64,000 nucleotides of DNA from a virus. Both the position numbers and the translations under genes were made by a program. Shown here in pieces: positions 2,010 to 47,523 of the stretch. Where the stretch lies: IMG/VR virus record IMGVR_UViG_3300021495_000001, positions 18,536 to 82,535 of that record; one strand, 5' to 3'. The notes below the pieces were generated by a model. It did no database searches. It was not told the origin of the DNA and saw nothing but the letters and a program-made list of their open reading frames with translations. How positions within the stretch are numbered: the stretch's first letter is position 1; every line of letters begins with the position of its first letter.

Positions 2010-2193
2010 GCAACACCACCCTGTCTTCCAGTCTAACCAGCCGGTGGTATTGATATGCAGGGGTACCTAGGACTATATGTGAATAATGGGTAGTAAGGAA
2101 CTCCTTAAACTGGTCACATTGACACAGCCCCTGTATAAGCTCTCTATCCACCTTCAGCTCTTCTACCATATCCCCTACCCCTACTTGCAACAT
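1972..2193 (-). CDS. Hypothetical small protein (internal Met of ORF 1972..2247)
   Basis: Fills the gap between the GT9 gene and the sigma gene on the same strand. No recognisable motif. Confidence 0.3.
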   Translation of the reverse strand: MLQVGVGDMVEELKVDRELIQGLCQCDQFKEFLTTHYSHIVLGTPAYQYHRLVRLEDRVVLHEWKVRRGDGSR

Positions 2194-3110
2194 AACACTC
2201 TCTCCACTGCCTTCATTACTCTCTCTACCTTTATCCCCCTCATACATTCATAATCAGAGCAAGAGAAAAAGAGGTCTTTGCCCTGGCAGGGCGCACAAGG
2301 CAAACTACTACCTAGAACAATGCCTTTTTTAGTGAAAAATGGTCGGTTTTTTGTGATGAGAGTAGGGCCAAACAAGGTAATCAAAGGGATGCCTAAAGCA
2401 TCAGCTACATGCATCAACCCACTATCATTCATTACTGCAAGATCACATTGGCTAATTACCTTTGCCGTCTCTGAAATAGTAAGTCTGCCGGCGTAGTTTA
2501 CCCCCCTCCCCCCGCATGCTTCCATTACCATCTGCCCCTCTAGCCATTCCTCCTCACCCCCAACCCAAACCACCCTTGCATCATATTCTTTTACAAGTGC
2601 CCGTGCGAGCTGGGGGAAATATGGCCATTTCTTTTTTTGCCAAACAGGTCGGTTTACTGACCCATTGCACAAACAGACATTCGTCCCCATCTTGGGCAAA
2701 ATAGGCCCCTGAGCCAAGGGAATATACGGAGTAGGTATCCCCCCTTTATACCCCAGTCCATACACATAGCTCATATAATACTCCACCTCATGTTCTCCAC
2801 TTTCCCATCGTGGGGGTCTCTGTGGAAGAGTAGTTAAGCTAAGTAGGGCCTCATGGATTGCCCCACCACCCCACTGAGTTATGAAAAACAAATCATATCC
2901 ATCTAACGAACATGGGAAAAACCTAACATTATCAACTAAAGGCCATTTTTTACACATTTCAATCACTGCATCAGAACGGTTATCCTTCCACCTCCCATCA
3001 AACACCACATCAAGAGTAGCATCAGGATATAACATTTTAAGAGCCTTCAACGCTGAGGTAAATAAAACCCAATTACCTAGACCATTCTGAAACCCTGTAC
3101 ATATCCTCAC
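2181..3110 (-). CDS. Glycosyltransferase family 9 (heptosyltransferase-like)
   Basis: NDSGLMHVADALGIPLITLFGPT and N-terminal GLGNWVLFTSALKALK are typical of RfaF/RfaC-type GT9 enzymes. Confidence 0.7.
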   Translation of the reverse strand: MRICTGFQNGLGNWVLFTSALKALKMLYPDATLDVVFDGRWKDNRSDAVIEMCKKWPLVDNVRFFPCSLDGYDLFFITQWGGGAIHEALLSLTTLPQRPPRWESGEHEVEYYMSYVYGLGYKGGIPTPYIPLAQGPILPKMGTNVCLCNGSVNRPVWQKKKWPYFPQLARALVKEYDARVVWVGGEEEWLEGQMVMEACGGRGVNYAGRLTISETAKVISQCDLAVMNDSGLMHVADALGIPLITLFGPTLITKNRPFFTKKGIVLGSSLPCAPCQGKDLFFSCSDYECMRGIKVERVMKAVERVLCCK

Positions 3111-3904
3111 TCTCTAGCCCTCCTCCATGTGGAATAGCGGGACTCCTCCCCCATATGGACGACCAACCCTGGCACTACCATTATGTATTTACCTTGCCTA
3201 ACACAACTGTTTCTTGCTGACCACCTTTCATGGTCACCTATCAGGTAGTAGTCCACCCTGCTTCCTCTACCCCTGCTGGGCATCCCCCGCTCTGTGCCAT
3301 CTGGGTTTAGGCGGGGGATAGGCATAATACTGTCCCAAAACCCCCTCTCTGCTACCAAACATGCAGCCCTTTCCAATTTTTTAAACTCTACTGGACGGCC
3401 TCGCCATGAAATAGCATCTACAGGGTGGTGTTCTGGGCTATCAAACCCACCAAAAAACCCTATGGGGTATTTTTCCTGTAGCTCCTCATATGCATCAATA
3501 AGTACCCTTATCCACCCCCGTTTTACCTCCACATCATCCTGTAAGTAAGCAAAATATTTAGCTGGGGTATAAAACTGCCCAAACATACCAGACACCCCAT
3601 ACAATGCATTCAACCCATAACACACTCCCTGCCGTCGTTTATTCAGGATGACAGCACAAAGCCTACCATCATACAGCCTTCGTAAATAATCCCCTGTCCC
3701 ATCGCTACTACAATCATCCACTACAAATAGACGGAAAGGTACAGTAGTGTTTCTAAATATGCTATCTAGAGTCCTCCTCAACAAACTACAACGGTTATAT
3801 GTGGTAACACCTATATCCACCACTGCTACACTCTCTATTTCTCTCACTATCTCTCTATCCTTCTCAGTCTGCTTCAAAAAGACACTGTTATAGTCTATCT
3901 TCAC
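3107..3904 (-). CDS. Glycosyltransferase family 2 (GT-A fold)
   Basis: VVDIGVTTYNRCSLLRRTLDSI ... RLFVVDDCSSDGT is a classic GT2 N-terminal signature. Confidence 0.75.
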   Translation of the reverse strand: MKIDYNSVFLKQTEKDREIVREIESVAVVDIGVTTYNRCSLLRRTLDSIFRNTTVPFRLFVVDDCSSDGTGDYLRRLYDGRLCAVILNKRRQGVCYGLNALYGVSGMFGQFYTPAKYFAYLQDDVEVKRGWIRVLIDAYEELQEKYPIGFFGGFDSPEHHPVDAISWRGRPVEFKKLERAACLVAERGFWDSIMPIPRLNPDGTERGMPSRGRGSRVDYYLIGDHERWSARNSCVRQGKYIMVVPGLVVHMGEESRYSTWRRARE

Positions 3905-4560
3905 CCCCCAAAAATCCTCCTATACCCCGTCAACTCAAAAAACACACTGTACAACTGCTCAATCTCTTCAATCTGACCTGTAGTCAAGTAATACCTAAAA
4001 TCAGCTAGTTTCCTGTCATGTACCCAGTCCCTCCTCAACCTACTTTCCAAGATATTCGCCCGCAAAGCCCTATCCACAACATCCAAAGGGACATCCACCC
4101 CTAAATGCCCGAATAACTGCCTAAAAGTAATAGATGCATGGGGACCTGTAGCCTGTTCATAAGAGACTAAATGTACAAAAGGTTTACCCCAGTAACCCAA
4201 AAACCAACAAACATACCGTGATAAGCAATTGGGGTGAGTAATCAACATATCAATGCTCTCTTTTAGCCCCTTCCCCTTTACTACTAGGTCCAAGGGATGG
4301 ATGGGAATATCACGGACATAAAAATAAACAGACACCACCACATCCCGTATATCCCTGTATATACCAAATATCTGCCTATCCTTGCACAAACCTAAACTGC
4401 TTGAATAGGGTAAATGCTGATGGCCATCTATCGCATCATTTAGTACCCTTACCCCTACCCTCTCAGCAATATACCTAACCACATCATGGAAATACACTGA
4501 GGCACTTCTAGGCATCCCCACCGCATATACCTCTTTCATCCCCCCTTCCCCTCCTTCCAA
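3901..4560 (-). CDS. Sulfotransferase-like protein
   Basis: 5'-phosphosulfate-binding-like loop GMPRSASVY and 3'-phosphate-binding-like YRDIRDVVVSVY. The likely true start is the second Met (MKEVYAVG). Confidence 0.55.
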   Translation of the reverse strand: MEGGEGGMKEVYAVGMPRSASVYFHDVVRYIAERVGVRVLNDAIDGHQHLPYSSSLGLCKDRQIFGIYRDIRDVVVSVYFYVRDIPIHPLDLVVKGKGLKESIDMLITHPNCLSRYVCWFLGYWGKPFVHLVSYEQATGPHASITFRQLFGHLGVDVPLDVVDRALRANILESRLRRDWVHDRKLADFRYYLTTGQIEEIEQLYSVFFELTGYRRIFGG

Positions 4561-5162
4561 AACACCATCAGACTGTGCTCCTCCCCTGTTCCATCCACAT
4601 CCCCCACCACCTCAACCATTATGCAGTGTAGTGGGGAAAACAGATGCTTATACTTATCCACCCCTCTATACCAAATATGCTCTTTATCCTCCAACCAAAT
4701 ACTGGTATTCTCATACAGCACTAAATAGCCATCTGGGGCTAATACTCTAGCAAGCTCACTGGTTACCTGTCTTATACATGAGGGTGGGATATGTTGAAGA
4801 ACCGTCCAGCTGAACACACCACCAAACTGAGCATCAGAAAAAGGAAGCCACAAACCATCATACTGGGCAAAGATCCCTTTTGGCACTCTTTTTTTAGCCT
4901 CCTTTACAGCCCACTCTACTATATCTACCCCATATACTTGCTTACAAAAAGAGGCCAGAAAGGCAGCCCACCTACCCCAACCACAACCAAAATCCAACAC
5001 TACCCTGTCACGAAACAAAAACTGCAACAAACCCTCATACTGCTTCTGCAGTCTAGTTGTTTGGGCCGTAAGCTGGGCTGAGGACAGCTTGCAATGGCCT
5101 ACTGCTTTACAGCCTTGCTCTCTATACCGCCTACACCAATACCCCCTTCTATCTTCTTTCAT
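4536..5162 (-). CDS. Class I SAM-dependent methyltransferase
   Basis: Motif I VLDFGCGWGRW, later LAPDGYLVLYEN. Confidence 0.7.
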   Translation of the reverse strand: MKEDRRGYWCRRYREQGCKAVGHCKLSSAQLTAQTTRLQKQYEGLLQFLFRDRVVLDFGCGWGRWAAFLASFCKQVYGVDIVEWAVKEAKKRVPKGIFAQYDGLWLPFSDAQFGGVFSWTVLQHIPPSCIRQVTSELARVLAPDGYLVLYENTSIWLEDKEHIWYRGVDKYKHLFSPLHCIMVEVVGDVDGTGEEHSLMVFWKEGKGG

Positions 5163-5334
5163 ACTGTTCCCTAATCCTCCGCTCTTTTTTTATCACCTGT
5201 GCAATACGCAATGTAAGATACCCCACAATCTCCTCCACTACCTCATCCTCTATTATCACCCCATGCTTTTTAGCAATGTCCACAATGTTCTGTTTGTGTA
5301 AATTAAACAAATCCTCTTTACTCATCCTTGCCAT
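5149..5334 (-). CDS. Hypothetical protein (61 aa)
   Basis: Collinear ORF, overlapped start/stop with neighbours. Confidence 0.4.
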   Translation of the reverse strand: MARMSKEDLFNLHKQNIVDIAKKHGVIIEDEVVEEIVGYLTLRIAQVIKKERRIREQYERR

Positions 5335-5337
5335 TTT

Positions 5338-5844
5338 TTACCCCCCTCTCTCTCTATTTTTCTTCCTGAAAGTATTTGTCCTAGAGTCATAATCCTTACT
5401 CACCTTAGCCCTTTCACAAAACTTTTTATGCTTCTTGTATTGTCTCTGGACATACTTAGAGTCTTTATGTTTCTGTACCTCTTCCTCTATGGACTTCAAC
5501 TGGCCTAGAAGAAAAGCCTCAAACTCCTTATATAGGCCAGCCATCCTAGGGCGTCTTCTATCTCTAGCCTTCCTCTGGTAAATATCACAAGCCCAAGCCA
5601 TAGCTAAAAAACCATAAGCAGGCATAAGCACTTCCAAAGGCAAATTCTTCCTGTCTGCTTTCAACTTATCCCCTCGTGCATTCTGGAGGACAAGCTTGTA
5701 ATCCCCAAACTTCTCCCCATAAATCCTCATAGCCAAATCTCTTGCTACCCTTGAAAAAACTCTATCACAGTATTTATACTCATTTTTAGCAAAAGCTCCA
5801 TTAAGCTTCCTAGCATAATGTAATAAAGTAAACTTGCTAAGCAT
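5338..5844 (-). CDS. Hypothetical basic protein (168 aa)
   Basis: Collinear ORF directly downstream of TerL; Lys/Arg-rich C-terminus. Confidence 0.45.
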   Translation of the reverse strand: MLSKFTLLHYARKLNGAFAKNEYKYCDRVFSRVARDLAMRIYGEKFGDYKLVLQNARGDKLKADRKNLPLEVLMPAYGFLAMAWACDIYQRKARDRRRPRMAGLYKEFEAFLLGQLKSIEEEVQKHKDSKYVQRQYKKHKKFCERAKVSKDYDSRTNTFRKKNRERGG

Positions 5845-5860
5845 TAGCTCCTCCTAAACT

Positions 5861-7471
5861 CTAATATTCCTCCTCTCCATCAGGCCACCAATTACTCACC
5901 CTCTTCCCCCTCTCACTCATTACTATCTGCTCCAACCCCACCCCCTTAGCCAATGCATTAAATGCCCCTGCTGCTGCATCTACCTGGTCTTTGTATGTCC
6001 CATGGGGGAAAAACCGATGCTCCTCTATAAACTCCTCGTTCCATCCCCCCTGTAACAATACTACATTCCCTGCATTCACCTGCACGCTATACGGGTCAGC
6101 CCTGTATACCTTGTTTCCAGTGGGTCGGTCTATCTCAACATGAAACCCAGCAAGATTTCTCACCGTCCCCTCAGCGCTCTCCTTTCCCCCACTCCCCGGC
6201 TCCTGCTCCACATACACCACACACCCACTACCATCCACCTCAGCCACCTCCCTGATTATCCTCTCCCTCTCATCACTACTCCACCTCCCCCGCCTAACAT
6301 CCAATACCATAAACTTCCCATTATTCAACTTACACATCTTTACCCCCACCGTATATGCCCCACCACCCTCTGTCCCTGCCTTATCCCAGTACCTCACTGT
6401 TTCTACTATGTCTATAGGCAAGGGTAGCTGGGTAGCTATTTGGAAATGCTCCACTTTGAACATCCCCCCGCCGGGTGGTACAGGGTGCTGTCCTACCTGC
6501 CCCGCATAACCATACTGGCCTAGCTCTGCCTGCATATCCTCTAGCACCTTCCACGGCATCCGTACTGGGTCCAGCAAGCCATTCACATAGTACCGGCACA
6601 GCTCTGGTGGTTGTAGTTGCTCTCGGTAGTTCTGTATCTCCCCCGGCAAACATATCAGCCTCACCCCCTTCCAGCTCCGTAGTATATGTCCTGAGGGGTC
6701 ATTTTGGTGGAGGCGTTGCATAATGAGTATCACCGGGGTCACTTCCTTGTCTGCCTTCCGTGTTGATAGCGTCTGGTCTATCCACCGGTTTGCACTTTGC
6801 AGTTCCTTCTCACTCACTGCCCTATTTGGGTCTACTGGGTCATCCACTATCAATATATGTCCATGAAACCCAGTCAGTGTGCCCCCTACAGATGTGGAGT
6901 ACCGGTTACCGCCTGGCCTTACTACTTCTCCTTTACTGTGGCGGACTATACGGAAATTGCTTTTAGTATCCTTGTCTTTTTTTACACTTAGGTGGGGAAA
7001 AAGAGCCTTAAACCTATCACTACGGACTATATCACGGCTTTTCTCTGCATGCTCCAAAGCCAATGCACCGCTATAACTGGCAACTATAAAGCACATCCAA
7101 TACCAATTTACCCAACACCAGACTGGAAGCATTACACTGCATACGGTTGATTTTGTGGTTCCTGGGGGGATATTTATTACTAGGTCATACTGTTTGGGCT
7201 CTCGGTTAGCCACCTGTCTGGCCATCCTTGCAAGTTCACTGCATAGGTATTTTATATGCCAGTTCCACACTGGGGGGTCGTTGCTCACTACTGGCCAAAA
7301 GTATTGTAGAAAATAGAAGAAATCCCGCCGACATAGTTCTGCCCGCAGTTCATTCCTCATACCGTAGAGTTTATAAGCTTGTTGAAACTGTTGTTTTCGT
7401 TCTTCATAGTGTTTCTTTCGGATAAACCCCAGACGGCTACTCTTGCTTATCTTTCCCATCAGCCTGCTCAA
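5861..7471 (-). CDS. terL: Terminase large subunit
   Basis: FFYFLQYFWP ... Walker A-like INIPPGTTKST, Walker B-like HILIVDDPVDP, IMQRLHQNDPSGHIL coupling motif, C-terminal nuclease-like half. Confidence 0.9.
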   Translation of the reverse strand: MSRLMGKISKSSRLGFIRKKHYEERKQQFQQAYKLYGMRNELRAELCRRDFFYFLQYFWPVVSNDPPVWNWHIKYLCSELARMARQVANREPKQYDLVINIPPGTTKSTVCSVMLPVWCWVNWYWMCFIVASYSGALALEHAEKSRDIVRSDRFKALFPHLSVKKDKDTKSNFRIVRHSKGEVVRPGGNRYSTSVGGTLTGFHGHILIVDDPVDPNRAVSEKELQSANRWIDQTLSTRKADKEVTPVILIMQRLHQNDPSGHILRSWKGVRLICLPGEIQNYREQLQPPELCRYYVNGLLDPVRMPWKVLEDMQAELGQYGYAGQVGQHPVPPGGGMFKVEHFQIATQLPLPIDIVETVRYWDKAGTEGGGAYTVGVKMCKLNNGKFMVLDVRRGRWSSDERERIIREVAEVDGSGCVVYVEQEPGSGGKESAEGTVRNLAGFHVEIDRPTGNKVYRADPYSVQVNAGNVVLLQGGWNEEFIEEHRFFPHGTYKDQVDAAAGAFNALAKGVGLEQIVMSERGKRVSNWWPDGEEEY

Positions 7472-8000
7472 TCTGCTCTATGGCCTGCACTAACTGATGT
7501 AGCTGTTCCACTGTCAACCTGCTTGGGTCTATCACTCGCTCTGCCTTTAATGGTCCTCCTTGTGGGCCCGTCAGCTCATGCACTTCCCTCAACCCTAAGC
7601 TCCGTGCCACCAGACCTGGGTTAAAAAACCCTAACACTGCGCCCTCAAACCTTTGTTGATATAGTATTTGTTCCACCATATCCATCACTGCCAGATACCC
7701 CTCCTCCCCCCGCTCCTTCTTTACCCGTCGGGTGTAATACCACCAATGCTTTGTCATACCTAAAAAAGTGCAGAAACCCTCCAGAGTGAAAGGCCGTGGA
7801 CGGGGGATTTTCTCTCTTCCCTTTTGGCCTTTATGGAACACCAGTTGCTCCTCATACAACGGGTTATCCTCTACCCATTTAAAATACTGGCAGGCCGCCC
7901 GCCATAACGATTCAGGGGTAGGGTATTTGGGGGGTCGGGTAGGGGTTGGATAGAGGGGGGCATGGGTTGCCCGTTTTTGCCACCATCGGGTTCGTCTCAT
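7437..8000 (-). CDS. terS: Terminase small subunit (gp3 DNA-packaging type)
   Basis: PESLWRAACQYFKWVEDNP ... RPFTLEGFCTFLGM pattern; immediately upstream of and overlapping terL. Confidence 0.7.
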   Translation of the reverse strand: MRRTRWWQKRATHAPLYPTPTRPPKYPTPESLWRAACQYFKWVEDNPLYEEQLVFHKGQKGREKIPRPRPFTLEGFCTFLGMTKHWWYYTRRVKKERGEEGYLAVMDMVEQILYQQRFEGAVLGFFNPGLVARSLGLREVHELTGPQGGPLKAERVIDPSRLTVEQLHQLVQAIEQIEQADGKDKQE

Positions 8001-15857: not shown

Positions 15858-16736
15858 ATGAAAAAAGAAATTAGACTAGCAGTAAGGGGGCTTTATGATT
15901 TACAAAAAATAAGGATACAAATAGGAAACAGATTACACAATCACTATCTAAACAAGCTTGGTGTTAAGCCTAGTGAAGAAAAAGATAAAACAATAGGGTG
16001 GCTAACAGAACGCCTAAAAGAGGAGCACAAAAGGATTGTTGATGGAATGCTACATGAAAAAAACTTAATCAAAAACTTAAGTAGAATTCTAGGCACAGAA
16101 AAAGGGCTTATCTCAACTGAAACAGAATTTGCTCTCTCCTCAGCATACCTGCACCTGTGTGAAGATGAAGAAAGACAAATCAAATTTCTTAAAAAACTCC
16201 TTGAAGACATCCCCATCTACAACAGCTTCCTAAAAGAAGTCAAAGGAGTTGGCCCCCAAATGGCAGGGGTAATAATCTCTGAGTTTGACATTACCAAAGC
16301 AAAATACGTAAGTAGTCTCTGGAAATATGCTGGGTTGGATGTTGTAGTGACTGCTGATGGTGAAGTGATGGGGAGGAGAATGAGCAAGAAATGTTGTAAA
16401 GTAATTGAATATATTGCTAAAAATGGAGAAAAGAAAGAAAGGTTATCACTAACTTACAATCCATTTCTGAAAAGCAAACTACTAGGCGTCCTCGCTAAAT
16501 CATTCATTAAGCTGAAAAGTCCTTACCGCAAATTTTATGATGATTATAAACATAGGTTACAAAACCACCCAAAGCACAAAAACAAAAGTAAAGGGCATAT
16601 AGACAACATGGCAAAGCGGTATATGATAAAAATGTTCCTAATTGACCTGTATGTGAAGTGGAGAAAATTATCAGGTTTGTCTGTACACCCCAGTTATGCT
16701 GAAGGAAAACTTGAAATTAAACACAAAGCAGGTTAA
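15858..16736 (+). CDS. IS110-family transposase-like protein lacking the N-terminal DEDD/RuvC domain
   Basis: VKGVGPQMAGVIISEFDITKAKYVSSLWKYAGLDVV matches the IS110 Tnp_20 HhH region (IPGIGxxxAxxLLAEIGDxxRFxSxxxLxxYAGLxP). Downstream YNPFLKSKLLGVLAKSF...YRKFYDDYKHRL...MAKRYMIKMFLIDLY also fits. The N-terminus begins at the coiled-coil linker (LAVRGLYDLQKIRIQIGNRL); no GIDxxK/DEDD segment is present. Confidence 0.5.
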   Translation: MKKEIRLAVRGLYDLQKIRIQIGNRLHNHYLNKLGVKPSEEKDKTIGWLTERLKEEHKRIVDGMLHEKNLIKNLSRILGTEKGLISTETEFALSSAYLHLCEDEERQIKFLKKLLEDIPIYNSFLKEVKGVGPQMAGVIISEFDITKAKYVSSLWKYAGLDVVVTADGEVMGRRMSKKCCKVIEYIAKNGEKKERLSLTYNPFLKSKLLGVLAKSFIKLKSPYRKFYDDYKHRLQNHPKHKNKSKGHIDNMAKRYMIKMFLIDLYVKWRKLSGLSVHPSYAEGKLEIKHKAG

Positions 16737-20589: not shown

Positions 20590-21177
20590 ATGAAAAAGAC
20601 AGAAATTACGAAGGAAGAGTTAGCTTATGTGGCAAAAGAGATGACAGAGTACATGCAACTAGAGCCACCAATTGAGGTTGATGGAAGTATAGAGGAGCTA
20701 AAAAGTGAAGTAGAGGAGGCTGCTGAGCTGATTGAGGAGGGGGATGAGTTTACGGAGAGAACAATAAAGGTGTTAAAGGCCTTAGGGGTGGACTTGCCTG
20801 AAGGGATTGGGGTGAAAAAGACCCAAGAGGAGAGCAAAGAGGACGCCCCAGTAAGTAAACCCCCAGCACCAGTTAAGAAAGAGAAAAAGAAAGAGGAAAG
20901 TCCACAGAAGGTAAAAATGTCAAAACCAAAGCTACAGGTGGTAAAGAAAGCTCAACAAGGGCAAAAAACACGGGCACAGGTGATGGCTGAGATAGTAAGG
21001 AGTACAAGGAAGAAACCACTTAGCACTAAGGAAATGATTGAGAGGATGAAAAAGGTATATGGTGGAAGTGAAAAGGAAGCTGTGTATCAGGTTAGGCATT
21101 ACATTGGGTTATTGGTGGCGCTTAGCCTCCTGTCTGTGAATGATAAAGGCAAATATACATATACTATTACTTCCTAG
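20590..21177 (+). CDS. Hypothetical acidic/Lys-rich protein with C-terminal winged-helix-like region
   Basis: Collinear ORF, first after motif copy 2. Confidence 0.45.
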   Translation: MKKTEITKEELAYVAKEMTEYMQLEPPIEVDGSIEELKSEVEEAAELIEEGDEFTERTIKVLKALGVDLPEGIGVKKTQEESKEDAPVSKPPAPVKKEKKKEESPQKVKMSKPKLQVVKKAQQGQKTRAQVMAEIVRSTRKKPLSTKEMIERMKKVYGGSEKEAVYQVRHYIGLLVALSLLSVNDKGKYTYTITS

Positions 21178-21187
21178 CTAACTGCAT

Positions 21188-22894
21188 ATGAGAGAGCTTG
21201 GCCATAAAGGGTTTTTTGACATAAAACCACACCAGAGGGGGCTTGCTGGGCAGTTTTTACTCCCCCCCTTCTCTGTCCTCCACACCTACACGGGTGAGTG
21301 GAAGAGGAGGAAACAACAATGGCTTGCACTTGGGATTAAGGGGGAAGTAGGAAGAGAATGTAGAGTTTATACTAATCGTGAGTGGGTAAGAAAAAAACTA
21401 CCACATGAAAAAGGGCTCTGTGTGAATTTAACTGCAGGAGGGGTTAGTGTATTTGACCCTGTCCTATGTGAGCTAATGTATAGTTGGTTTTGCCCTAAAG
21501 GTGGTGGCATCTTAGACCCCTTTGCTGGTGGGTCAGTGCGTGGTGTGGTGGCCTCTTGTATGGGGTATAAATACTATGGCTGTGAGATCTGCCCTGAGCA
21601 AGTGCAGGCTAATAGAGAGCAGGCAGTTGAGATTTTTGGAAGGTATGGAGTAGATAGCTTAACACCTGTTCAATATATTATAGATGGTGTTTACTTAAAA
21701 AGGGATGATTATTTTAATGTTTTGGGTTTGAGGGGTGGGAAAGTAAGGACGGCGTACACTTTGTTGAAGAAGGCAGATAGCAACACTATTGTAACTGCTG
21801 GTGCAAGGCAGAGCCCACAGATAGCAATTGTCTCTGCATTATCATATTGGCTAGGCAAAACCTGCCATTGTTTTGTCCCAACTGGTGAAGAGACAGAGAT
21901 GATTAATATAGCAAGGTATTTTAAAGCAAAAGTACATAAGGTAATGCCAGGCCGTAACAGTGTCCTCATATCAAGAGCAGTAGAGTTTGCCAAGAAAAGA
22001 GAGTTTTGCTATATCCCTTTTGGCATGGAGTGTGAGGAGGCAGTTGAGGAGACAGCAAAACAGGTGCAAAACCTCCCTTTTGATAAAATCAATAAAATTG
22101 TCCTCCCTGTTGGTTCAGGTATGAGCTTGGCTGGGGTTATTACTGGGTTAAAGAGACTTGGTATTAAAAAGAAAGTATTAGGTATTGTAGTAGGTGCAAA
22201 CCCAGAAAGGAGGCTTGATAAATTTGCACCAAGCTGGGAGGACTATGTTGAGCTCATCAGAGTGGGTAAGCAGTATCATGAGGAGGAGAGAGTGGATGAG
22301 AAGTGGGGTGTTCATTTTGATAAAATTTATGAAGCTAAATGTTTAGGCTTCGTAGAAAAAGGAGACCTGTTTTGGGTTGTTGGTATGAGACCTAAACTTG
22401 AGGAGGTTGTGGGTGAGAATTACCCAAAGTGGATTGTTGGTGATAGTAATAAGGTGTTAGATGGGCTGATAGAAAAGGGGGTAAAGTATGATTTTATCTT
22501 TACCTGCCCACCATATGGTAATTTAGAAGTGTATAGTGACTTGGAAGGTGATATTAGTAATATACAAAGTTATGATAAGTTTTTGGAGGCTTACAGTAGT
22601 ATAATCCATAAGGCTTGCCATTGTCTAAGGCAGAACCGTTTTGCTTGTTTTGTGGTAGCTAACTATAGAGATAAAAAGGGGTTTTACCATGATTTTGTGG
22701 GTGATACCATACGGGCATTTGAAGAGTGTGGGGCGCATTTTTATAATGAGTTGATTTTGGTGACACCCCCGGGTAGCCTTCCTGTGCGTGCAGGGAGGGT
22801 CTTTAGTAGCACAAGGAAGGTAGGCAAGATGCACCAGAATGTTTTGGTTTTTTATAAAGGTGATGTTAAAAAAATAAAAGAGATTTTTAAGTGA
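21188..22894 (+). CDS. DNA N4/N6-methyltransferase interrupted by a PLP-dependent (ACC deaminase / D-cysteine desulfhydrase-like) domain
   Basis: MTase motif I region FDPVLCELMYSWFCPKGGGILDPFAGGSVRG (aa ~90-120). MTase motif IV DFIFTCPPYGNLEVYSD (aa ~445). Between them: KRDDYFNVLGLRGGKVR, TAGARQSPQIAIVSALSYWLGKTCHCFV and VLPVGSGMSLAGVITGL, matching fold-type II PLP enzyme landmarks. Confidence 0.6.
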   Translation: MRELGHKGFFDIKPHQRGLAGQFLLPPFSVLHTYTGEWKRRKQQWLALGIKGEVGRECRVYTNREWVRKKLPHEKGLCVNLTAGGVSVFDPVLCELMYSWFCPKGGGILDPFAGGSVRGVVASCMGYKYYGCEICPEQVQANREQAVEIFGRYGVDSLTPVQYIIDGVYLKRDDYFNVLGLRGGKVRTAYTLLKKADSNTIVTAGARQSPQIAIVSALSYWLGKTCHCFVPTGEETEMINIARYFKAKVHKVMPGRNSVLISRAVEFAKKREFCYIPFGMECEEAVEETAKQVQNLPFDKINKIVLPVGSGMSLAGVITGLKRLGIKKKVLGIVVGANPERRLDKFAPSWEDYVELIRVGKQYHEEERVDEKWGVHFDKIYEAKCLGFVEKGDLFWVVGMRPKLEEVVGENYPKWIVGDSNKVLDGLIEKGVKYDFIFTCPPYGNLEVYSDLEGDISNIQSYDKFLEAYSSIIHKACHCLRQNRFACFVVANYRDKKGFYHDFVGDTIRAFEECGAHFYNELILVTPPGSLPVRAGRVFSSTRKVGKMHQNVLVFYKGDVKKIKEIFK

Positions 22895-22906: not shown

Positions 22907-23003
22907 ATGTGGCCGTGCTGAGTTTTACCCTCCCTCCTCTACTACACCTCCTTCCCCTGTTTACAGACAGGGTTTAGGGAGTGGGTTTTGTAGGCACGGC
23001 CAT
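22907..23003 (+). ncRNA. Structured intergenic element (long nested hairpin followed by T-run) with anti-SD segment
   Basis: Outer stem GGCCGTGC (22911-18) / GCACGGCC (22994-23001), then ATTTTTT. Inner ACCC-TCCCT / AGGGA-gt-GGGT. Apical CCCTGT-ttacag-ACAGGG. CCTCCTT (22947-53) is complementary to the clamp SD AAGGAGG (23011-17). Confidence 0.4.
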
Positions 23004-23022
23004 TTTTTACAAGGAGGAACAA

Positions 23023-24060
23023 ATGGAAAGAGAAAAGTTATTAAAAGCATTAGAGGTTGTTAGACCAGGGCTGTCAAACAAAGGTTTTATAGAGCAGATG
23101 GGTTGTTTTATTTTTACAGGGGATAGAGTGGTTACTTACAATGATGAAATTACCATTACCCACCCTCTACAAACAGGAATAACGGGGGCAGTGAGAGCAG
23201 AACAACTGTATAAGTTGCTTGGTAAACTACCTGACCACCGTATTAGGCTTAGGGCAACTGAAACAGAGCTGTTGGTGTCTGATGGGAAAATTAAAGCAGG
23301 CATCCCTTTACAAACAGAGATAGAACTCCCCCTTCTGGATTATAGCAAGATAAAGGGCTGGGTGAAAATACCAGAGGGCTTTTTAGAAGCAGTTAAATTT
23401 TGCCTCTTTTCATGTGCTAGAGACATCACCACCCCACAATTGTCTTGTATTTATGTTAATAAAAAAGGGGGGTCAGTGGAGTCCACAGATAATTTCCGTC
23501 TTACCAGGGTTAATGTGGGGGGGCTTGATGCGTTCCCTGCCTCTTTCTTACTCCCTGTCCATGCAGCGGAGGGAGTATTTGCCAATGAGGGGGGAGTGGA
23601 AGAGATAGCAGTGGGGGAGAACTGGGTGCATTTTAGGTTGGGTAACCAGTGTATGTTTAGTGCTAGGACTTATACAGAAGTCCAATATCCTAATCTTTCA
23701 GAGGTCATCCATCAGTTTGAACAAAAAAAAGAGAAGGTAAAAATCACTTTACCAAAAACCCTTCCTGACATCCTCCAGCGAGCAATGATATTTGCTGGTG
23801 ACAGTGGGACTGAACGGGTTACAGTGTCTGTATTGTCAGGGAAGATGGAAGTGAGGGCAGAGGGAGTAAATGGATGGTTTAAAGAAGTGGATGAGGTGGA
23901 CTATGAGGGGGAGACAGTAGTGTTTCGTATTAACCCTCATTATCTAGCTGATATATGTGAGAAGACTAATTATCTTGAGGTAACTGATAGGCTAGCAGGA
24001 TTTAGAAGTGAAGAGTGGATACATATTGTGGCATTGATGTCTGAGAAGGAGGAGACATAG
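23023..24060 (+). CDS. DNA polymerase sliding clamp (beta-clamp/DnaN-like)
   Basis: MEREKLLKALEVVRPGLSNKG...FTGDRVVTYNDEITITH...LYKLLGKLPDHRIRL...LLVSDGKIKAGIPL follows the DnaN domain-I pattern. Size ~345 aa. A clamp loader is encoded nearby. Start set at the ATG after AAGGAGG rather than the track GTG at 22981. Confidence 0.55.
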   Translation: MEREKLLKALEVVRPGLSNKGFIEQMGCFIFTGDRVVTYNDEITITHPLQTGITGAVRAEQLYKLLGKLPDHRIRLRATETELLVSDGKIKAGIPLQTEIELPLLDYSKIKGWVKIPEGFLEAVKFCLFSCARDITTPQLSCIYVNKKGGSVESTDNFRLTRVNVGGLDAFPASFLLPVHAAEGVFANEGGVEEIAVGENWVHFRLGNQCMFSARTYTEVQYPNLSEVIHQFEQKKEKVKITLPKTLPDILQRAMIFAGDSGTERVTVSVLSGKMEVRAEGVNGWFKEVDEVDYEGETVVFRINPHYLADICEKTNYLEVTDRLAGFRSEEWIHIVALMSEKEET

Positions 24061-24659: not shown

Positions 24660-27242
24660 GTGGGCTTTTTCAACCTAGTAAGTGAAAAAACTAGAGGTGG
24701 CTGTGTTTCCTGTGGCTTATATAAAAATGCAACTAACCCCCAGATAAAGCCATACGGCCATTTTAAACTAGGCATTCTAAATGTAGGCCAAAGCCCTGGT
24801 GAGGTAGAAGATAGAAGAGGGAAGCCTTGGCAGGGGAGAGCTGGACGGGTGCTTAGACAGGCATATAGAGAGCTAGGGGTGTCCTTGTTCAGGGATTGCC
24901 TAAACATTAATGCAGTGAACTGCCGTCCAATAGACAAAAAAGGCAATAACAGAACCCCCACAAATAATGAGATTAACTGTTGCCGTCCACGAGTGCTGAG
25001 AACCATTAAGGAGAACCACCCCAAAGTGATTGTCCTCTTAGGTGGTGAAGCAGTGCAGAGTGTAATAGGCCATAGATGGAAAAAGGACTTAGGGGGGATA
25101 ATGAAATGGAGGGGGTGGTGTATACCAGATAGAGACCTGCATGCATGGGTCTGCCCTGTCTTCCACCCCAGCTATGTTATGAGGCAGGAGAGGGAGGATG
25201 TGGCATGGACAGTATGGAGGCAGGATTTAGAGAGAGCTTTAGGTATGATACATACCCCTTTCCCCACTTTTACTGAAGAAAGAGAAAAGGTAAGAATAGT
25301 AAAACAACCAAGGGCGTTATTTGAAAAGCTGAGAAAAGAAACTCCATCTATGAACCCACCATACCTAGCCTTTGATATAGAGACAACTGGAATAAAGCCG
25401 TATGACAAACAAAACCATCAGGTAGTTTGCATGTCTTTTTGTAATAGCCCAGATATTGTTTATGTCACCCCAGCACCAATTGAGAGGGCTGATGTAGAGG
25501 CTCTAAAAAAATTGCTAGAGGATAAGAGGATTGGAAAGATTGCACATAATATGAAGTTTGAAGGAACATGGATGAAGGTAATGTATGGGATAGAGGTAAG
25601 AGGGTGGGTATGGGATAGCATGATAGCTGCACATGTTTTAGACAACCGCCCAGATATAACAGGGCTTAAGTTTCAGGTGTATATCCGTTTTGGGATACCA
25701 GATTATGATAGTGAGATTACACCATACCTGAGGGGAAAAGACCCCAAAAATGCTAACTCAGTGAATAGAATTATGGAGCTGGTGAGGTCTCCTGTGGGCT
25801 TTACTAAGTTGATGAACTATTGTGGGCTGGATAGCTTGTTTACTTACCAGCTAGCAATAAAACAGATGAAAGAGATAAAACAGTATGAGAAAGGTTATGG
25901 ATTATTTCATAATGGTGCTTTAGCATTAATGCGAGCAGAGTGGGCTGGAATGAGGGTGGATGTAGAGTATTGTAAACGAAAAAAGAGACTTTTGTCCAAA
26001 AAGGTCAATTTCTACCAACATAAACTGGAAGAGACTAAACTGGCTCAGTTATGGAAAAAGAGATTTAGGGATAAGGTGAACTGGAACAGCAACCAGCAGT
26101 TATCCCATATTCTTTACCATGTCATGAAAATAACTCCACCCAAGCTAACTGCCACAGGGGCTGGTGCAACAGATAATGAGGCATTGGAAAAGATAAATGT
26201 CCCTGGGGTGGGTTTGATATTGCAGATCCGTAGACTGAAAAAAATCCGAGACACCTACCTAGAGGCTTTTCTGAGAGAACAAGTAGGGGGCTGGATGCAT
26301 CCCCATTTTGACCTGCACACAGTGCGTAGCTACCGTAGCTCTAGCTCTTCCCCTAATTTCCAAAATATACCTAATCGGGATAGAGAGGCAATGAAAATAT
26401 GCCGAGGGGCTATATACCCACGGCCAGGGCACTTGATATTAGCCCCTGATTTCAGTGGGATAGAGGTGATGGTTGCCTGCTGTTACACAAAGGATGAGCG
26501 GCTGATTTATGATGCTGTCCATGGGGATATGCATAGGGATATGGCAATGGAGCTGTATATGTTAGATAGCCTAGACAAACACCACCCTGGTGAAAAGAAT
26601 TTCCGCCAAGGGGGGAAGAACGGGTTTGTATTCCCCCAATTTTATGGAGATTATTATATGAACTGCGCCCAGGGGCTGTTAGAGTGGGCGAAAGTGGCAT
26701 ATCGCAGGGATGGCACACCAGGGTTGGTGCATCTTCAGGATAAAGGATTGGTTAAGTTGGATAAAAAAGGTGAGATAAAAAGCTGTGATAAATTTATTGA
26801 GCATGTACGGGCAGTGGAAGACCAGTTTTGGAATGTAAGGTATAAAGGGTACACAGAATGGAAAGAGAGAACCTGGAGGGAATATCAAAAGAAGGGCTAT
26901 GTGGAGATGTTTACTGGATTTAGATGTGGCGGGGTGATGCGGAGAAACGAAGTATTAAACATCCCCATACAAGGCTCAGCTTTTCACTGCTTGTTGTGGT
27001 CTTTTATTGAAATTGGCAGGATAAGTGAAGAGGAAGGGTGGGATAGCAGATTATTCGGGGAGATACATGATGAGATGCTGATTGACACCCACCCAGAAGA
27101 ACTTGAACATGTAAAGAAGACAGTAGAGAGGGTAACCACGGTAGAGCTACCCAAGGCTTTTTCATGGATAATTGTTCCATTGAAAGTAGAAATAGAAGTA
27201 CATCCTGTAGATGGTTGTTGGGCAAAGAAAGAAAGTCATTAA
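24660..27242 (+). CDS. Family A DNA polymerase with 3'-5' exonuclease and N-terminal family-4 UDG-like domain
   Basis: UDG-like: CVSCGL, GQSPGEVEDRRGKPWQGRAGRVL, FHPSYVMR. Exo: LAFDIETTG, HNMKFE, YCGLDSL. Pol: motif A APDFSGIEVMV, motif B RQGGKNGFVFPQFYG, motif C EIHDEMLID. Confidence 0.9.
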   Translation: MGFFNLVSEKTRGGCVSCGLYKNATNPQIKPYGHFKLGILNVGQSPGEVEDRRGKPWQGRAGRVLRQAYRELGVSLFRDCLNINAVNCRPIDKKGNNRTPTNNEINCCRPRVLRTIKENHPKVIVLLGGEAVQSVIGHRWKKDLGGIMKWRGWCIPDRDLHAWVCPVFHPSYVMRQEREDVAWTVWRQDLERALGMIHTPFPTFTEEREKVRIVKQPRALFEKLRKETPSMNPPYLAFDIETTGIKPYDKQNHQVVCMSFCNSPDIVYVTPAPIERADVEALKKLLEDKRIGKIAHNMKFEGTWMKVMYGIEVRGWVWDSMIAAHVLDNRPDITGLKFQVYIRFGIPDYDSEITPYLRGKDPKNANSVNRIMELVRSPVGFTKLMNYCGLDSLFTYQLAIKQMKEIKQYEKGYGLFHNGALALMRAEWAGMRVDVEYCKRKKRLLSKKVNFYQHKLEETKLAQLWKKRFRDKVNWNSNQQLSHILYHVMKITPPKLTATGAGATDNEALEKINVPGVGLILQIRRLKKIRDTYLEAFLREQVGGWMHPHFDLHTVRSYRSSSSSPNFQNIPNRDREAMKICRGAIYPRPGHLILAPDFSGIEVMVACCYTKDERLIYDAVHGDMHRDMAMELYMLDSLDKHHPGEKNFRQGGKNGFVFPQFYGDYYMNCAQGLLEWAKVAYRRDGTPGLVHLQDKGLVKLDKKGEIKSCDKFIEHVRAVEDQFWNVRYKGYTEWKERTWREYQKKGYVEMFTGFRCGGVMRRNEVLNIPIQGSAFHCLLWSFIEIGRISEEEGWDSRLFGEIHDEMLIDTHPEELEHVKKTVERVTTVELPKAFSWIIVPLKVEIEVHPVDGCWAKKESH

Positions 27243-43393: not shown

Positions 43394-43787
43394 TAAAGAG
43401 AGTAAACTGGTTGTCTTTTTAGCACTTGTTTACATGCGTGTTCCATGGGGGAAGATGCAGATGGGGAAGAATGTTTGGGATGTGTTTAACCACCGTGTCC
43501 GTGCTGCATCTAGAAAAGGGACTATGCAAGCATTTGCAAGCAAGTTATGTAACTATTTTGGGATACAGTCTCTGCCCCCAGAGGCTGTGCTCATTCTAGA
43601 TGACCTTATCCCTGATCAAGAAAGAGTGCTAAACCTGCTATATATGGAACATATACCAATTTGCATGAGAGCAGTAATAAAAGCAAAAGAGATTAGAGAA
43701 GCTAAAAAAGAGAAAGAGAAAGAGAAACAACAGAAAAAGGAGGAAAAGAATGGGGAAAAATTACAAAACGGTCTGTGGACTGTGTGA
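43380..43787 (+). CDS. cas11: Cas11-like small subunit (type IV-B)
   Basis: 135 aa. Called mainly from its position between the csf1-like and csf2-like genes, as in type IV-B loci. No motif-level evidence. Confidence 0.45.
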   Translation: MSSNDKESKLVVFLALVYMRVPWGKMQMGKNVWDVFNHRVRAASRKGTMQAFASKLCNYFGIQSLPPEAVLILDDLIPDQERVLNLLYMEHIPICMRAVIKAKEIREAKKEKEKEKQQKKEEKNGEKLQNGLWTV

Positions 43788-44583
43788 GGCAAAAACCCCG
43801 ATTTTTCATGGAGGAAATGAAAAAACAGGGAGCACCCCTATCCTTCGCACCATTATGATTTGGCATGAAGGGGGTGGGGTTAGCATCCCCTACATCCATG
43901 GGAATGCAGTGCGGGGAAAGCTGAGACGGATGATTATGAAAGATATGCTAGAGGTGGTTGGATACTCTGTGACAAACAAAAAGTTGCACCACTCTCTGTT
44001 TTCTGGTGGAGTGTTAGAGGGAACTGAAAAAACAAGTGGAGTTCTAGATTTAACATTAAGGAAAGAAATTGTGGACATGCTCCCCCCTATTTCTCTATTT
44101 GGCTGTGGGATAGGAAACCAGTTGATACAAGGGAAGCTTGTGGTTGGACATATGTGGCCTATTTGCAAGGAGTATAAAGCCTTTCTTCCTACTAGCTTCC
44201 AAGGTGACCAGCGGGCGCAGCAGCCTGTTCGTGTCTTTACAGATGAGTCTTTTATCACTAGGAGGGATGATTTGCGAGAGGAGAGGGAAAAAGATAAGCA
44301 GGCTGTCCAGATGAAAGTAGATTATGAGTGCTTTATCCCTGGGACAGCCTTTTACCATGAGTTCAAACTCCTTTTTACAAACGCAGTGGAGGAAAGTTGC
44401 TTTTCACGCTTGCTATCCCTGTGGAAAATGTATCCAAACGTTGGTGGCCGTGGGAGTTCAGGTGATGGGTTGTTAATTTTAAACTATGACTGGGAAGGCA
44501 AAGATGATGTATATATGGAACATTTAAGCACAAAGGCCAAAGAGATTGCATCCTTGTTAAAAAAACTGGAGGAAATGTTGTGA
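43750..44583 (+). CDS. csf2: Csf2 (Cas7-family RAMP backbone subunit, type IV)
   Basis: TPIFHGGNEKTG...IPYIHGNAVRGKLRR, ISLFGCGIGNQLIQGKLVVGHMWPIC: RAMP/Cas7 hallmarks. Confidence 0.7.
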   Translation: MGKNYKTVCGLCEAKTPIFHGGNEKTGSTPILRTIMIWHEGGGVSIPYIHGNAVRGKLRRMIMKDMLEVVGYSVTNKKLHHSLFSGGVLEGTEKTSGVLDLTLRKEIVDMLPPISLFGCGIGNQLIQGKLVVGHMWPICKEYKAFLPTSFQGDQRAQQPVRVFTDESFITRRDDLREEREKDKQAVQMKVDYECFIPGTAFYHEFKLLFTNAVEESCFSRLLSLWKMYPNVGGRGSSGDGLLILNYDWEGKDDVYMEHLSTKAKEIASLLKKLEEML

Positions 44584-45374
44584 TGATCCCCGTCTTATAT
44601 GAAAAGCAAAGAGAGGAGATAGAGTATTTTGTTTCAAAGATAGAAAGGCAGAAACAGAAACAAAGGTTAAATAGATTTACCAATTTTAAAATCACTTTTA
44701 CTCTCTCTTCTCCAATCTGCATCACCACCCCATGGCTTAATTTTGACAGCCTTATAGGGCATCTTATGACTATGGAGAGTTTGGATAGGGAGTATTTTGT
44801 TACGGATAAAAAAATTAACTTAGCAAAATATATGTCAGGTGGGGGGTTACCGTATGGGTCTTTATGGCATGAAGAAGAAGGGCTGGCTGTTCCAACAGTG
44901 AGTGTTGGATATTCAGAAGAACCTTTTGAACCTCGTGTAGAGGTTTTGTATAAGCGGTTTGAGGGGTATCATGCATCATTCAAAGGAAAGATAAGGGTTG
45001 GCTCTGGACATTTCCGTAACTTTATGATTCGTCATATTTATATCCCCATAAAAAAGGTTATTTTCTTTGTGAAAGGGGATAAAGAGTTTATCTACAACTT
45101 ACTAAAGAGAAATCTATTTGCCCTTGGCAATGATGTTCGTGTAGGTTATGGGTTTATAAAAAATATGTCAGTCAGAGATATGGAGAAGGATTACTCTATT
45201 GTGATGAATGGAAAAGCTATGCGTCCGCTCCCTGTGGAATTCTGCAAGAGTTATGAAGAAGTGGCCCCTCTTCCATACAAACCACCGTATTGGGAGAAAA
45301 GAAATGTGCGGATGTGTGTACCCCCTTTTACTAGGTGTGAGTTGAAAGAAAAGTGGAGGAAGTATTACGGGTGA
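44580..45374 (+). CDS. csf3: Csf3 (Cas5-family RAMP, type IV)
   Basis: FKITFTLSSPICITTPWLNFDSLIGHL N-terminal RAMP strand/helix; G-rich loop LGNDVRVGYGFI near the C-terminus. Confidence 0.65.
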   Translation: MMIPVLYEKQREEIEYFVSKIERQKQKQRLNRFTNFKITFTLSSPICITTPWLNFDSLIGHLMTMESLDREYFVTDKKINLAKYMSGGGLPYGSLWHEEEGLAVPTVSVGYSEEPFEPRVEVLYKRFEGYHASFKGKIRVGSGHFRNFMIRHIYIPIKKVIFFVKGDKEFIYNLLKRNLFALGNDVRVGYGFIKNMSVRDMEKDYSIVMNGKAMRPLPVEFCKSYEEVAPLPYKPPYWEKRNVRMCVPPFTRCELKEKWRKYYG

Positions 45375-46544: not shown

Positions 46545-46557
46545 AAGGAGTTAAAAC

Positions 46558-47491: not shown

Positions 47492-47523
47492 CAAGTAGAG
47501 CGGGGAAACAAAAGGAGGCATTT

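Follow-up and report, generated by a model that had tools for sequence, protein, structure and literature searches.

A phage methyltransferase fold with an inserted PLP-dependent domain as a candidate DNA hypermodification enzyme

A stretch of 64,000 nucleotides from the virus record IMGVR_UViG_3300021495_000001, called the window below, carries an open reading frame (ORF) at 21188-22894 (+) that encodes a 568-aa protein. The product is one S-adenosylmethionine (SAM)-dependent amino-methyltransferase (MTase) fold, made up of residues ~87-150 and ~410-568, with an inserted fold-type II domain of the pyridoxal phosphate (PLP)-dependent kind. Its probable activity is not plain methylation but a modification of a DNA base that has not been described. 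By analogy with the microcin C enzymes MccD and MccE, it would install the aminocarboxypropyl (ACP) group of SAM on a base, and the PLP domain would then decarboxylate this group to aminopropyl. We give this reading a probability of roughly one in three.

We count the following in its favour: the fold itself, the conserved PLP site, the kinship of the PLP domain with the phage decarboxylases ViI gp226 and M6 gp52, the linkage of the two parts in split and fused arrangements, the absence of a thymidine-hypermodification pathway and the Mcc precedent. To these we add the Dam-type insertion point, the basic character of stand-alone PLP members and an atypical Cys in motif IV of the MTase.

Domain layout of the fused protein

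The ORF, which ends with the stop codon at 22892-22894, is present as given in a first-pass annotation made from the letters of the window, and its product was also called on a 68,293-bp metagenomic contig. All peptides quoted in that annotation (WKRRKQQWLALGIKGEVGR, FDPVLCELMYSWFCPKGGGILDPFAGGSVRG, KRDD, GGKVR, GSGMSLAG, DFIFTCPPYGNLEVYSD and MHQNVLVFYKG) are found in the translation. Its central claim, an MTase split by an inserted PLP-type domain, is borne out by Pfam, AlphaFold2 and Foldseek. Profile mapping showed that the middle segment (residues 168-350) carries PALP (PF00291, E=7e-12, 45.7 bits, cut-off 35), while N6_N4_Mtase (PF01555, E=1.8e-12, 48.1 bits, cut-off 26.7) matches in two stretches on either side of it. 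Outside the insert, the best PHROG families are phrog_12517 (E=8e-90) and phrog_498 (E=7.5e-76).

The AlphaFold2 model, built on 27 homologs, has a mean pLDDT of 83.4, with values >90 over most of residues 90-520. In this model the insert is an autonomous domain similar to 1-aminocyclopropane-1-carboxylate (ACC) deaminase and D-cysteine desulfhydrase (together ACCD/DCyD), located where Dam-type methylases hold their DNA-recognition insert. Foldseek matched it to 4d9f (E=8e-14) and 1j0a (target-normalised TM 0.65, rmsd 3.9 A), and both MTase halves aligned across the insert to the 318-aa single-domain viral MTase A0A6J5Q9J0 (TM 0.76, again target-normalised). By sequence, the closest solved structures are 2zie (TTHA0409) for both flanks and 1j0a for the middle. 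Of the 120 best homologs, nearly all combine PF00291 with PF01555, and many also carry ParB. Since the same layout recurs to this extent, the architecture is not a matter of chance.

The insert comprises ~250 aa (residues ~157-405; 21656..22402, +) and, according to predicted secondary structure, lies between beta2/helix B (128-150) and beta3 (414-417), after motif II and before motif III. The first-pass annotation had put ~270 aa between motifs I and IV, so its placement holds and its size was somewhat too large. In the Rossmann fold, this point comes after the second strand-helix unit, a site where Dam-type (alpha-class) adenine MTases also accommodate a foreign domain. In the latter, however, the insert is a winged helix-turn-helix rather than an enzyme, the sequence family is a different one and motif IV reads DPPY.

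The halves flanking the insert had been assigned to the MTase as an N-terminal ~160 aa and a C-terminal ~150 aa. This stands, except that the first ~86 residues do not belong to the core. They consist of a family-specific segment, PPFSVL..W..RK..W..G....GR (~23-56), and a low-confidence linker. The N-terminal motif FLLPPFSVLHTYTGEWKRRKQQWLALGIKGEVGR (residues 23-56; 21254..21355, +) is conserved in the homolog alignment A1, with F28 invariant and F23, P26, P27, W38, R41, K42, W45, G49, E53, G55 and R56 nearly so. In longer homologs the segment separates the ParB domain from the MTase core, and it is also found in two insert-less proteins, gp36 of Enterococcus phage phiFL3A and MT351, an MTase of the contig L010 described below.

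The N-lobe of the MTase (residues 87-150; 21446..21637, +) is formed by an FDPV..E helix, beta1, beta2 ending in the acidic E132, and helix B. Motif I, DPFAGGSVRG (21515-21544, +), lies in beta1 and includes the invariant D110, F112, G114, G115, V117, R118 and G119. DPFAGGS at 110-116 is invariant throughout, and position 132 is D or E in nearly all aligned homologs. Residues 91-147 match the motif I region of beta-class MTases in Pfam, NCBIfam and the PDB. The C-lobe (residues 410-568; 22415..22891, +) contains beta3 and beta4 followed by motifs V-VIII, with the second PF01555 stretch at 435-561. After beta3 there is a GDS triplet with a conserved D419 (22439-22447, +), and beta4 carries motif IV, TCPPY (22502-22516, +), followed by L..E.YS; in the alignment of residues 414-477 to 2zie it pairs with TSPPY..L..Y.

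Judged by motif I, the acidic beta2 residue and GDS, the SAM site looks intact. The protein therefore has the Rossmann fold with a glycine-rich SAM loop and an acidic end of beta2 that mark the amino-MTase superfamily, and departs from the strict motif at a single residue. The canonical amino-MTase motif IV is [DNSH]PP[YFW] (PMC4738411); here the PPY part agrees, and the first position is Cys in 197/198 family instances and Ser in the remaining one.

By sequence and by its unpermuted motif order (I before IV), the MTase part is a member of the phage ParB-terminase-locus clade. Iyer, Zhang and Aravind predicted that methylases of this "ParB-terminase large subunit locus" modify phage DNA during packaging (PMC4738411), and we found no experimental characterisation of any member, biochemical or methylome, in the literature searched. 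Insert-less members such as phiFL3A gp36 and Listeria phage B054 gp77 (Iyer/Aravind group-1, the source of clade 6) are fused to ParB and encoded just upstream of terminase genes. Outside the insert they share 45-50% identity with the window protein, and they have the unpermuted motifs, the N-terminal PPFS..W..RK..W and the motif IV context xCPPY..LE.YS in common with it. They differ in lacking the PLP domain, and most have an N-terminal ParB domain and a place beside the terminase, neither of which applies to the window protein. It gave no match to the ParB domain (PF02195) and starts ~22 residues before the conserved PPFS motif. Its gene belongs to the replication module, with a DnaB-like helicase on one side and a sliding clamp on the other, 13.7 kb away from the terminase genes (5861-8000, -). 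The terminase-adjacent position is seen in L017, phiFL3A and Vincenzo.

The motifs (T)xPPY..L..Y and DPFAG are common to the window protein and TTHA0409 of Thermus thermophilus (2zie), a putative beta-class N4/N6 methylase that is its nearest MTase of solved structure in sequence (E=3.9e-7). TTHA0409 differs in being circularly permuted (motif IV before I), in having SPPY instead of CPPY and in containing no PLP domain. Membership in a known defence system was also considered and rejected, as PADLOC gave weak generic type II MTase matches and nothing for the PLP part.

The PLP domain, its relatives and its partners

Alignments of the inserted domain pointed to a preserved active site. The predicted Schiff-base lysine is K185 in GGKVR (codon 21740..21742, +), which aligns with the GGNK Lys of 1j0a and with K92 of ViI gp226 and is present in 246/246 family members. 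The phosphate loop GSGM (residues 309-312; 22112..22123, +) aligns with AGSGGT of 1j0a, and its residues G309, S310 and G311 are kept in 245, 242 and 229 of the 246 members, respectively. Both elements had been proposed as candidates by the first-pass annotation, and alignment to 1j0a places them at K185 and G309-S-G-M. Near the C-terminal end of the domain there is YEAK (residues 381-384; 22328..22339, +), with Y381 and E382 in 246/246 and K384 in 245/246 members, which we take to be the equivalent of the Tyr294/Glu295 motif of ACC deaminase. The Y(E/D)xK pattern is also found in gp226 and gp52, and DcyD has YTGK. Taken together, these residues show strong purifying selection on the PLP site, which is apparently active; the idea of a degenerate scaffold was discarded on account of residue invariance.

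One position sets the insert apart from the cellular enzymes. In QSPQ (residues 208-211; 21809..21820, +), which is conserved at S209 (246/246), P210 (242/246) and Q211 (245/246), the proline stands where ACCD/DCyD have the Asn that, with the Ser, binds PLP-O3' (SNH/SNQ), as in HSNH of 1j0a and QSNH of DcyD. ViI gp226 reads QSPM, so QSP replaces (Q/H)SN in both the insert and gp226. A second motif, FWxxG, is common to the insert, gp226 and gp52, the corresponding segment of DcyD being IHTGG. As for charge, the family has near-neutral isoelectric points like gp226 and gp52, with basic stand-alone members (median 8.6), and cytosolic DcyD is at 4.9.

The two best viral-family matches of the insert in PHROG were phrog_3650 (E=4e-31, 109 bits as against 45.7 for PALP and 42.5 for TIGR01275) and phrog_7093 (E=6.4e-13). 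The former is the family of Salmonella phage ViI gp226 (E=2.5e-241) and the latter that of Pseudomonas phage M6 gp52 (E=2.2e-159). Purified gp226 and gp52 are PLP-dependent decarboxylases of O-seryl- and C-alpha-glycyl-thymidine in DNA (Lee et al., PMC8989533); in a model of gp226 based on 1j0a, the same authors assigned the aldimine lysine to K92 (PMC8989533). Since PHROG clustering might inflate the 109-bit score, we built a hidden Markov model (HMM) solely from the insert family. It gave 65 bits for gp226, 48 for Escherichia coli DcyD and 45 for gp52. The 109-bit score was therefore not accepted as proof of close kinship with gp226, although gp226 is, by a modest margin, the nearest characterised relative of the insert.

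Both phage decarboxylases resemble the insert in being ACCD/DCyD-like fold-type II proteins with KR(D/E)D, the Schiff-base Lys, Y(E/D)xK and FWxxG, and the insert is similarly compact to gp52, which has 278 aa. They are, however, separate proteins that act in their pathway after a 5-hydroxymethyldeoxyuridine (5-hmdU) kinase and an amino-acid:DNA transferase, whereas the partner of the insert is a SAM-dependent MTase fold. The closest solved structures belong to the ACCD/DCyD family (TIGR01275; 1j0a, 4d9f and 1f2d, E ~1e-13), with the Lys, the Ser, the Gly-rich loop and the Tyr-Glu pair aligned. In comparison with these enzymes, the insert is ~80 residues shorter, has Pro for the PLP-O3' Asn and FWxxG for IHTGG, and is embedded in a DNA enzyme. 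ACCD/DCyD models were its best NCBIfam matches, yet they scored far below their cut-offs (42.5 bits against 289.4 for TIGR01275). By score and by the missing Asn, the insert is thus within the fold-type II ACCD/DCyD superfamily and outside the ACCD/DCyD family. Its sequence groups with the phage DNA-acting decarboxylases, minus their pathway context.

This context was sought in Pfam and PHROG scans of ~45 ORFs of the window, which covers ~94% of the 68.3-kb genome, and in tblastn searches with M6 gp51, gp53, gp54, gp55 and gp58 against the window and 11 related loci. The window contains no dUMP hydroxymethylase of the thymidylate synthase (TS)-like type, no T-dioxygenase (5mYOX), no 5-hmdU kinase (5-HMUDK) and no amino-acid:DNA transferase (AADT), and the ORF scans and tblastn revealed no radical-SAM isomerase. 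The lone tblastn match (E=0.005) falls inside the PolA gene. Thymidine-hypermodification genes were likewise not found in the PLP-linked neighbourhoods, including a lambda-like prophage in which a ParB-MTase-PLP gene lies directly upstream of the terminase. Because the pathway genes are absent, the substrate of the PLP domain is not expected to be a hydroxymethyl-uracil-derived conjugate of the kind used by gp226 and gp52, and service in such a pathway was rejected.

The module is widespread. In an exhaustive search with the insert alone, clustering at 50% identity gave 853 clusters, of which 311 had E<=1e-30, and stand-alone PLP proteins (<320 aa) made up ~11% of the collected proteins that contain it. 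It occurs in phages of Actinobacteria, Cyanobacteria and Alphaproteobacteria and in many uncultured lineages. Among cultured phages, the fusion is found in Erythrobacter phages vB_EliS-R6L and ZS04, where it is annotated as a methylase, and in Pseudanabaena phage Pam4, where it is annotated as a PLP enzyme; the authors of the R6L paper annotated one CcrM-like domain and did not note the PLP domain. The first-pass annotation did not recognise the architecture as described, and we too found no description of an MTase-PLP fusion in the literature searched, even though it is common in databases and deposited phage genomes. As a putative phage DNA hypermodification enzyme, the fusion of an MTase fold with a PLP tailoring domain is new to that literature, and the families of both parts are known.

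The same two parts also occur as separate genes. In contig L010, which is syntenic with the window (DnaB, SNF2, primase-like, …, clamp, UDG-PolA and clamp loader genes, UDG standing for uracil-DNA-glycosylase), a stand-alone protein, PLP266, is 45% identical to residues 158-408. Two genes downstream of it, the insert-less MT351 has the same motifs and 41-45% identity to residues 7-149 and 403-568, its residues 177-346 matching the C-lobe at 45%. In Mycobacterium phage Vincenzo, gp1 (ParB-MTase) is followed by gp2 (PLP), a pair that AlanGrant also has; in L037 and L047 the PLP gene lies 2-4 kb up- or downstream of the MTase gene. At four bacterial genome loci, one of them in a prophage of the cultured Sinorhizobium shofinae CCBAU 251167, it is found within ~100 nt downstream of the MTase. 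L102, too, shows a split or C-terminal arrangement. In P0119 (760 aa, alignment A1), ParB and a complete insert-less MTase are followed by a C-terminal PLP domain, which represents a second, independent mode of fusion. As split and fused arrangements recur, we consider the MTase and PLP parts to be functionally coupled, with the PLP part able to act in trans.

Some of these loci contain further genes. Between the PLP and MTase genes of L010 there are g75 (6798-7025), small and probably a membrane protein, and g191 (7027-7602), a Cys-rich DUF3109/Rv0495c-like protein; neither has a homolog in the window, and they were dismissed as obligatory partners. A DUF3109 gene adjoins the PLP gene in L059:2774-8725 as well (Porticoccaceae metagenome-assembled genome (MAG) contig CAYWXW010000003.1). 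There, a stand-alone member of the PLP family (5971-6840) is encoded downstream of the DUF3109-like gene and two paralogous genes similar to the MprF C-terminus (PF09924), and is followed by SLOG/YAcAr, metallophosphatase and RegA-like genes. No xCPPY methylase was found within 6 kb of it. This suggests that the PLP module can partner another, possibly aminoacyl-tRNA-dependent, transferase.

In L125:4037-7895 (Solirubrobacterales MAG contig JAXLSZ010000008.1), 13 bp separate a PLP gene of the same family (5878-6774) from the divergently oriented gene of a canonical full-length N6_N4 methylase (4996-5865, 143 bits). The methylase stands beside a BamHI-family endonuclease (4037-4996), with an integrase on the other side. 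Upstream of another MTase-PLP fusion, of 563 aa, the stretch L015/L016:4729-9432 holds two ParB_N genes, a C5 DNA methylase, a patatin-like protein and an Aminotran_5 gene, the last being cysteine-desulfurase-like (fold-type I PLP).

The proposed route and competing explanations

If the protein acts as we propose, the MTase-fold domain would transfer the ACP group of SAM to a flipped base and release methylthioadenosine. The PLP domain, held at its DNA-facing position, would then react with the amino acid tethered to the base, forming an aldimine at its free alpha-amine, and decarboxylate it. The resulting aminopropyl base would carry a positive charge and would protect the phage DNA against restriction and further defences that target DNA, like putrescinyl-, aminoethyl- and aminoethoxymethyl-thymidine in other phages. 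In the ParB-fused homologs, the ParB domain would probably load or activate the enzyme on DNA near the packaging site; phage ParB homologs activate T-dioxygenases on double-stranded DNA (PMC13229309).

ACP is the sole amino-acid moiety that a SAM-dependent transferase can deliver, and there is no other source of a DNA-tethered amino acid; this is why ACP transfer was proposed. A PLP enzyme requires a primary amine, and a decarboxylase requires an alpha-amino acid. Precedents exist for both steps. ACP is transferred to a tRNA base by Tyw2, a Rossmann-fold enzyme, and to microcin C by MccD, which has the MTase fold; the N-terminal PLP domain of MccE then decarboxylates the microcin adduct to aminopropyl, although the order of the MccD and MccE steps is not fully settled (PMC10491745). 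The window protein would share with MccD/MccE the transfer of ACP to a nucleotide-type acceptor and the PLP decarboxylation that follows, a resemblance in mechanism rather than in family membership. In microcin C the acceptor is the phosphoramidate of a peptidyl-nucleotide, not DNA, and the two activities reside on separate proteins.

Several results weigh against this scheme. The ACP-transfer step is one that we purely infer, the SAM motifs look canonical, and the MccD structure 5FCD was absent from the PDB sequence matches at E<=1. No aminopropyl or ACP base in phage DNA was reported in the literature searched. On the PLP side, the margin of gp226 over cellular DcyD is modest, and BLASTP of the insert against a gp226 orthologue gave E=2e-14 at an identity as low as ~26%. 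The pTM of the AlphaFold2 model is 0.61. The most serious objection comes from a comparison of 32 non-redundant PLP-linked with 17 PLP-less MTase cores. It revealed no residue that discriminates between the two groups, all ~66 conserved positions being common to both. In a distance tree the cores were interspersed; mean identity was 0.51 and 0.55 for pairs from one group and 0.52 for pairs across groups. Since the cores are indistinguishable, a PLP partner probably makes no difference to the transferase chemistry. For the abundant PLP-less prophage enzymes, ordinary methylation is the parsimonious assumption, and it would leave a PLP enzyme nothing to act on.

The suggestion of the first-pass annotation, that the protein makes a hypermodification with an amino-acid or aminocarboxypropyl adduct, thus gains from the gp226 kinship, the linked neighbouring genes and the MccD/MccE precedent, and loses from the likeness of the cores. 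The PLP module itself looks like an add-on gained or lost repeatedly; 64/79 bacterial genome loci are PLP-less. Either the whole family transfers ACP, with the PLP-less majority mis-annotated, or the family methylates and the PLP domain does something else. Under a broad form of the first option, which we regard as doubtful, all xCPPY proteins of phage ParB-terminase loci, which cultured bacteria carry in hundreds of their prophages, would be the first DNA aminocarboxypropyl transferases rather than MTases, so that PLP-less phages would carry an ACP base and PLP-bearing ones an aminopropyl base. It includes a variant in which the Cys of motif IV might, by analogy with C5-methyltransferases, be a nucleophile, with the adduct on pyrimidine C5. 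Compared with such an adduct, the 5-aminoethyl-uracil of phage M6 is one carbon shorter.

Among the competing explanations, the one that survives best, which we hold to be unlikely but worth keeping in mind, is an ordinary N4-methylcytosine/N6-methyladenine MTase whose PLP domain processes SAM or S-adenosylhomocysteine (SAH). This might mean removal of SAH, which is an inhibitory by-product, depletion of SAM as an anti-restriction measure or ACC-type chemistry; the first-pass annotation had offered SAM/ACC-linked anti-restriction chemistry as a possible alternative to hypermodification. The MTase motifs, canonical except for the Cys of motif IV and identical in PLP-less relatives, would be expected of such an enzyme, and SAM and SAH are themselves nucleoside-tethered amino acids resembling the substrates of gp226 and gp52. 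The L125 gene pair, with its canonical N6_N4 MTase, suggests a link to amino-MTases in general, and by-product removal does stimulate MccD (PMC10491745). A scavenger, however, needs no DNA-facing insertion, which is the dominant architecture, and destroying SAM inside a SAM-dependent enzyme would be self-defeating. We know of no fold-type II PLP enzyme that acts on SAM or SAH. The characterised relatives act on DNA, the stand-alone members are basic, and the L059 gene is paired with MprF-C-like putative aminoacyl transferases and no MTase.

The order of the steps could also be reversed, with the PLP domain making decarboxy-SAM and the MTase fold adding aminopropyl to the base in the manner of a spermidine synthase. 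Spermidine synthases are indeed aminopropyl transferases with a class I MTase fold, and the PLP relatives of the insert are decarboxylases. Such an order may apply even to MccD and MccE (PMC10491745). Nevertheless, PLP-less relatives with identical cofactor-site residues would then have no dedicated supply of decarboxy-SAM, the substrates of gp52 and gp226 are bound to DNA, and the DNA-facing insertion would go unexplained. We regard this order as improbable.

Quite improbable, too, is a scheme in which the PLP domain uses an aminoacrylate intermediate to attach an amino acid straight to the flipped base by beta-replacement, while the MTase flips the base and/or methylates the product. Fold-type II enzymes are the classic catalysts of beta-replacement: cysteine-synthase-like enzymes make willardiine-type nucleobase amino acids in this way, and DCyD makes aminoacrylate. 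The active-site residues of the ACCD/DCyD type are kept in the insert, and the PLP domain is on the DNA side. The nearest characterised relatives are decarboxylases, though, and beta-replacement explains neither the strictly conserved SAM site nor the stand-alone PLP proteins located apart from an MTase.

Two further ideas can be dealt with briefly, as we consider both very improbable. A non-catalytic PLP domain serving an ordinary methylase as its target-recognition or DNA-binding module would fit the Dam-type position and an MTase core with no other recognisable recognition domain, but not the Schiff-base Lys, phosphate loop, Ser and Y-E-x-K that are invariant or nearly so in 246 members, nor the existence of the module as a separate protein and of insert-less relatives that function without it. 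A PLP domain tailoring, like gp226, a thymidine-type hypermodification made by other phage enzymes, with the MTase fusion incidental, would agree with the homology to gp226 and gp52 and with metavirome fusions of PLP decarboxylases to other hypermodification enzymes (PMC8989533), but the pathway genes are absent from the near-complete genome and the related loci, the fusion is present in a lambda-like prophage of the ~40-50-kb type, and the MTase-PLP link recurs in several independent gene arrangements.

Known amino-acid-derived hypermodifications of phage DNA all start from 5-hydroxymethyl-pyrimidines and need several enzymes. If the aminopropyl reading is true, phages would have a new and far simpler way of making a positively charged base, in which one polypeptide takes an amino-acid side chain from SAM and then trims it with the help of PLP. 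The ACP modifications known from tRNA, rRNA and microcin C would thereby gain their first counterpart in DNA, and the enzyme would be a compact tool for enzymatic DNA labelling. Given the size of the family, an unrecognised base may be common, which would affect restriction, evasion of defence systems and sequencing-based calling of modifications. A further question raised by the results is the true function of the PLP-less "methylases" that are so commonly encoded next to phage terminases. As cultured phages carry the gene, the question is directly testable.

Neighbouring genes in the window

Directly downstream of the fusion gene there is a sliding clamp, or processivity factor (22981..24060, +; phrog_947, E=2.2e-34), which is also matched by L010 g354. 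The same neighbour is found in L010, and in R6L the gene that follows the fusion was labelled beta-clamp-like by the authors of that genome. This hints at a coupling of modification to replication. Upstream of the ATG at 21188, which lies 11 nt after the stop of the previous ORF, no Shine-Dalgarno sequence was recognisable (21160-21190).

The DNA polymerase gene (24660-27242, +) encodes an N-terminal domain of the UDG superfamily, a 3'-5' exonuclease and PolA; L010 has this fusion as well, and in L009 a UDG domain is fused to a polymerase of the PolIII-alpha type. Since the best cultured-phage match of the polymerase has ~25% identity, we assign the window phage to an uncultured lineage. Elsewhere in the replication module, a 292-aa ORF (15858-16736, +) gave a weak match to IS110-family transposases (PF02371, E=6.3e-5).

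A co-directional run at 43750-47163 (+), before the endolysin (47464-48081), may be a second nucleic-acid-modification module. It contains phrog_22746 and phrog_34599 proteins of unknown function, a weak SpoU-like methylase (45353-45823), a protein similar to phosphoadenosine phosphosulfate (PAPS) reductase (45816-46544) and a weak P-loop thymidylate-kinase-like/AAA_28 match (46558-47163). In Erythrobacter phage R6L, a PAPS-reductase gene is found a few genes from the MTase-PLP fusion.

The packaging module keeps unusual company. Downstream of the terminase (5861-8000, -), the segment 2181-5162 (-) encodes a class I SAM methyltransferase (4536-5162), an unannotated ORF, a GT2 glycosyltransferase (3107-3904) and a GT9 heptosyltransferase-like protein (2181-3110). 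Along the window, the GC skew changes sign at ~8 kb and ~48 kb, matching the transcription blocks (-, +, -).

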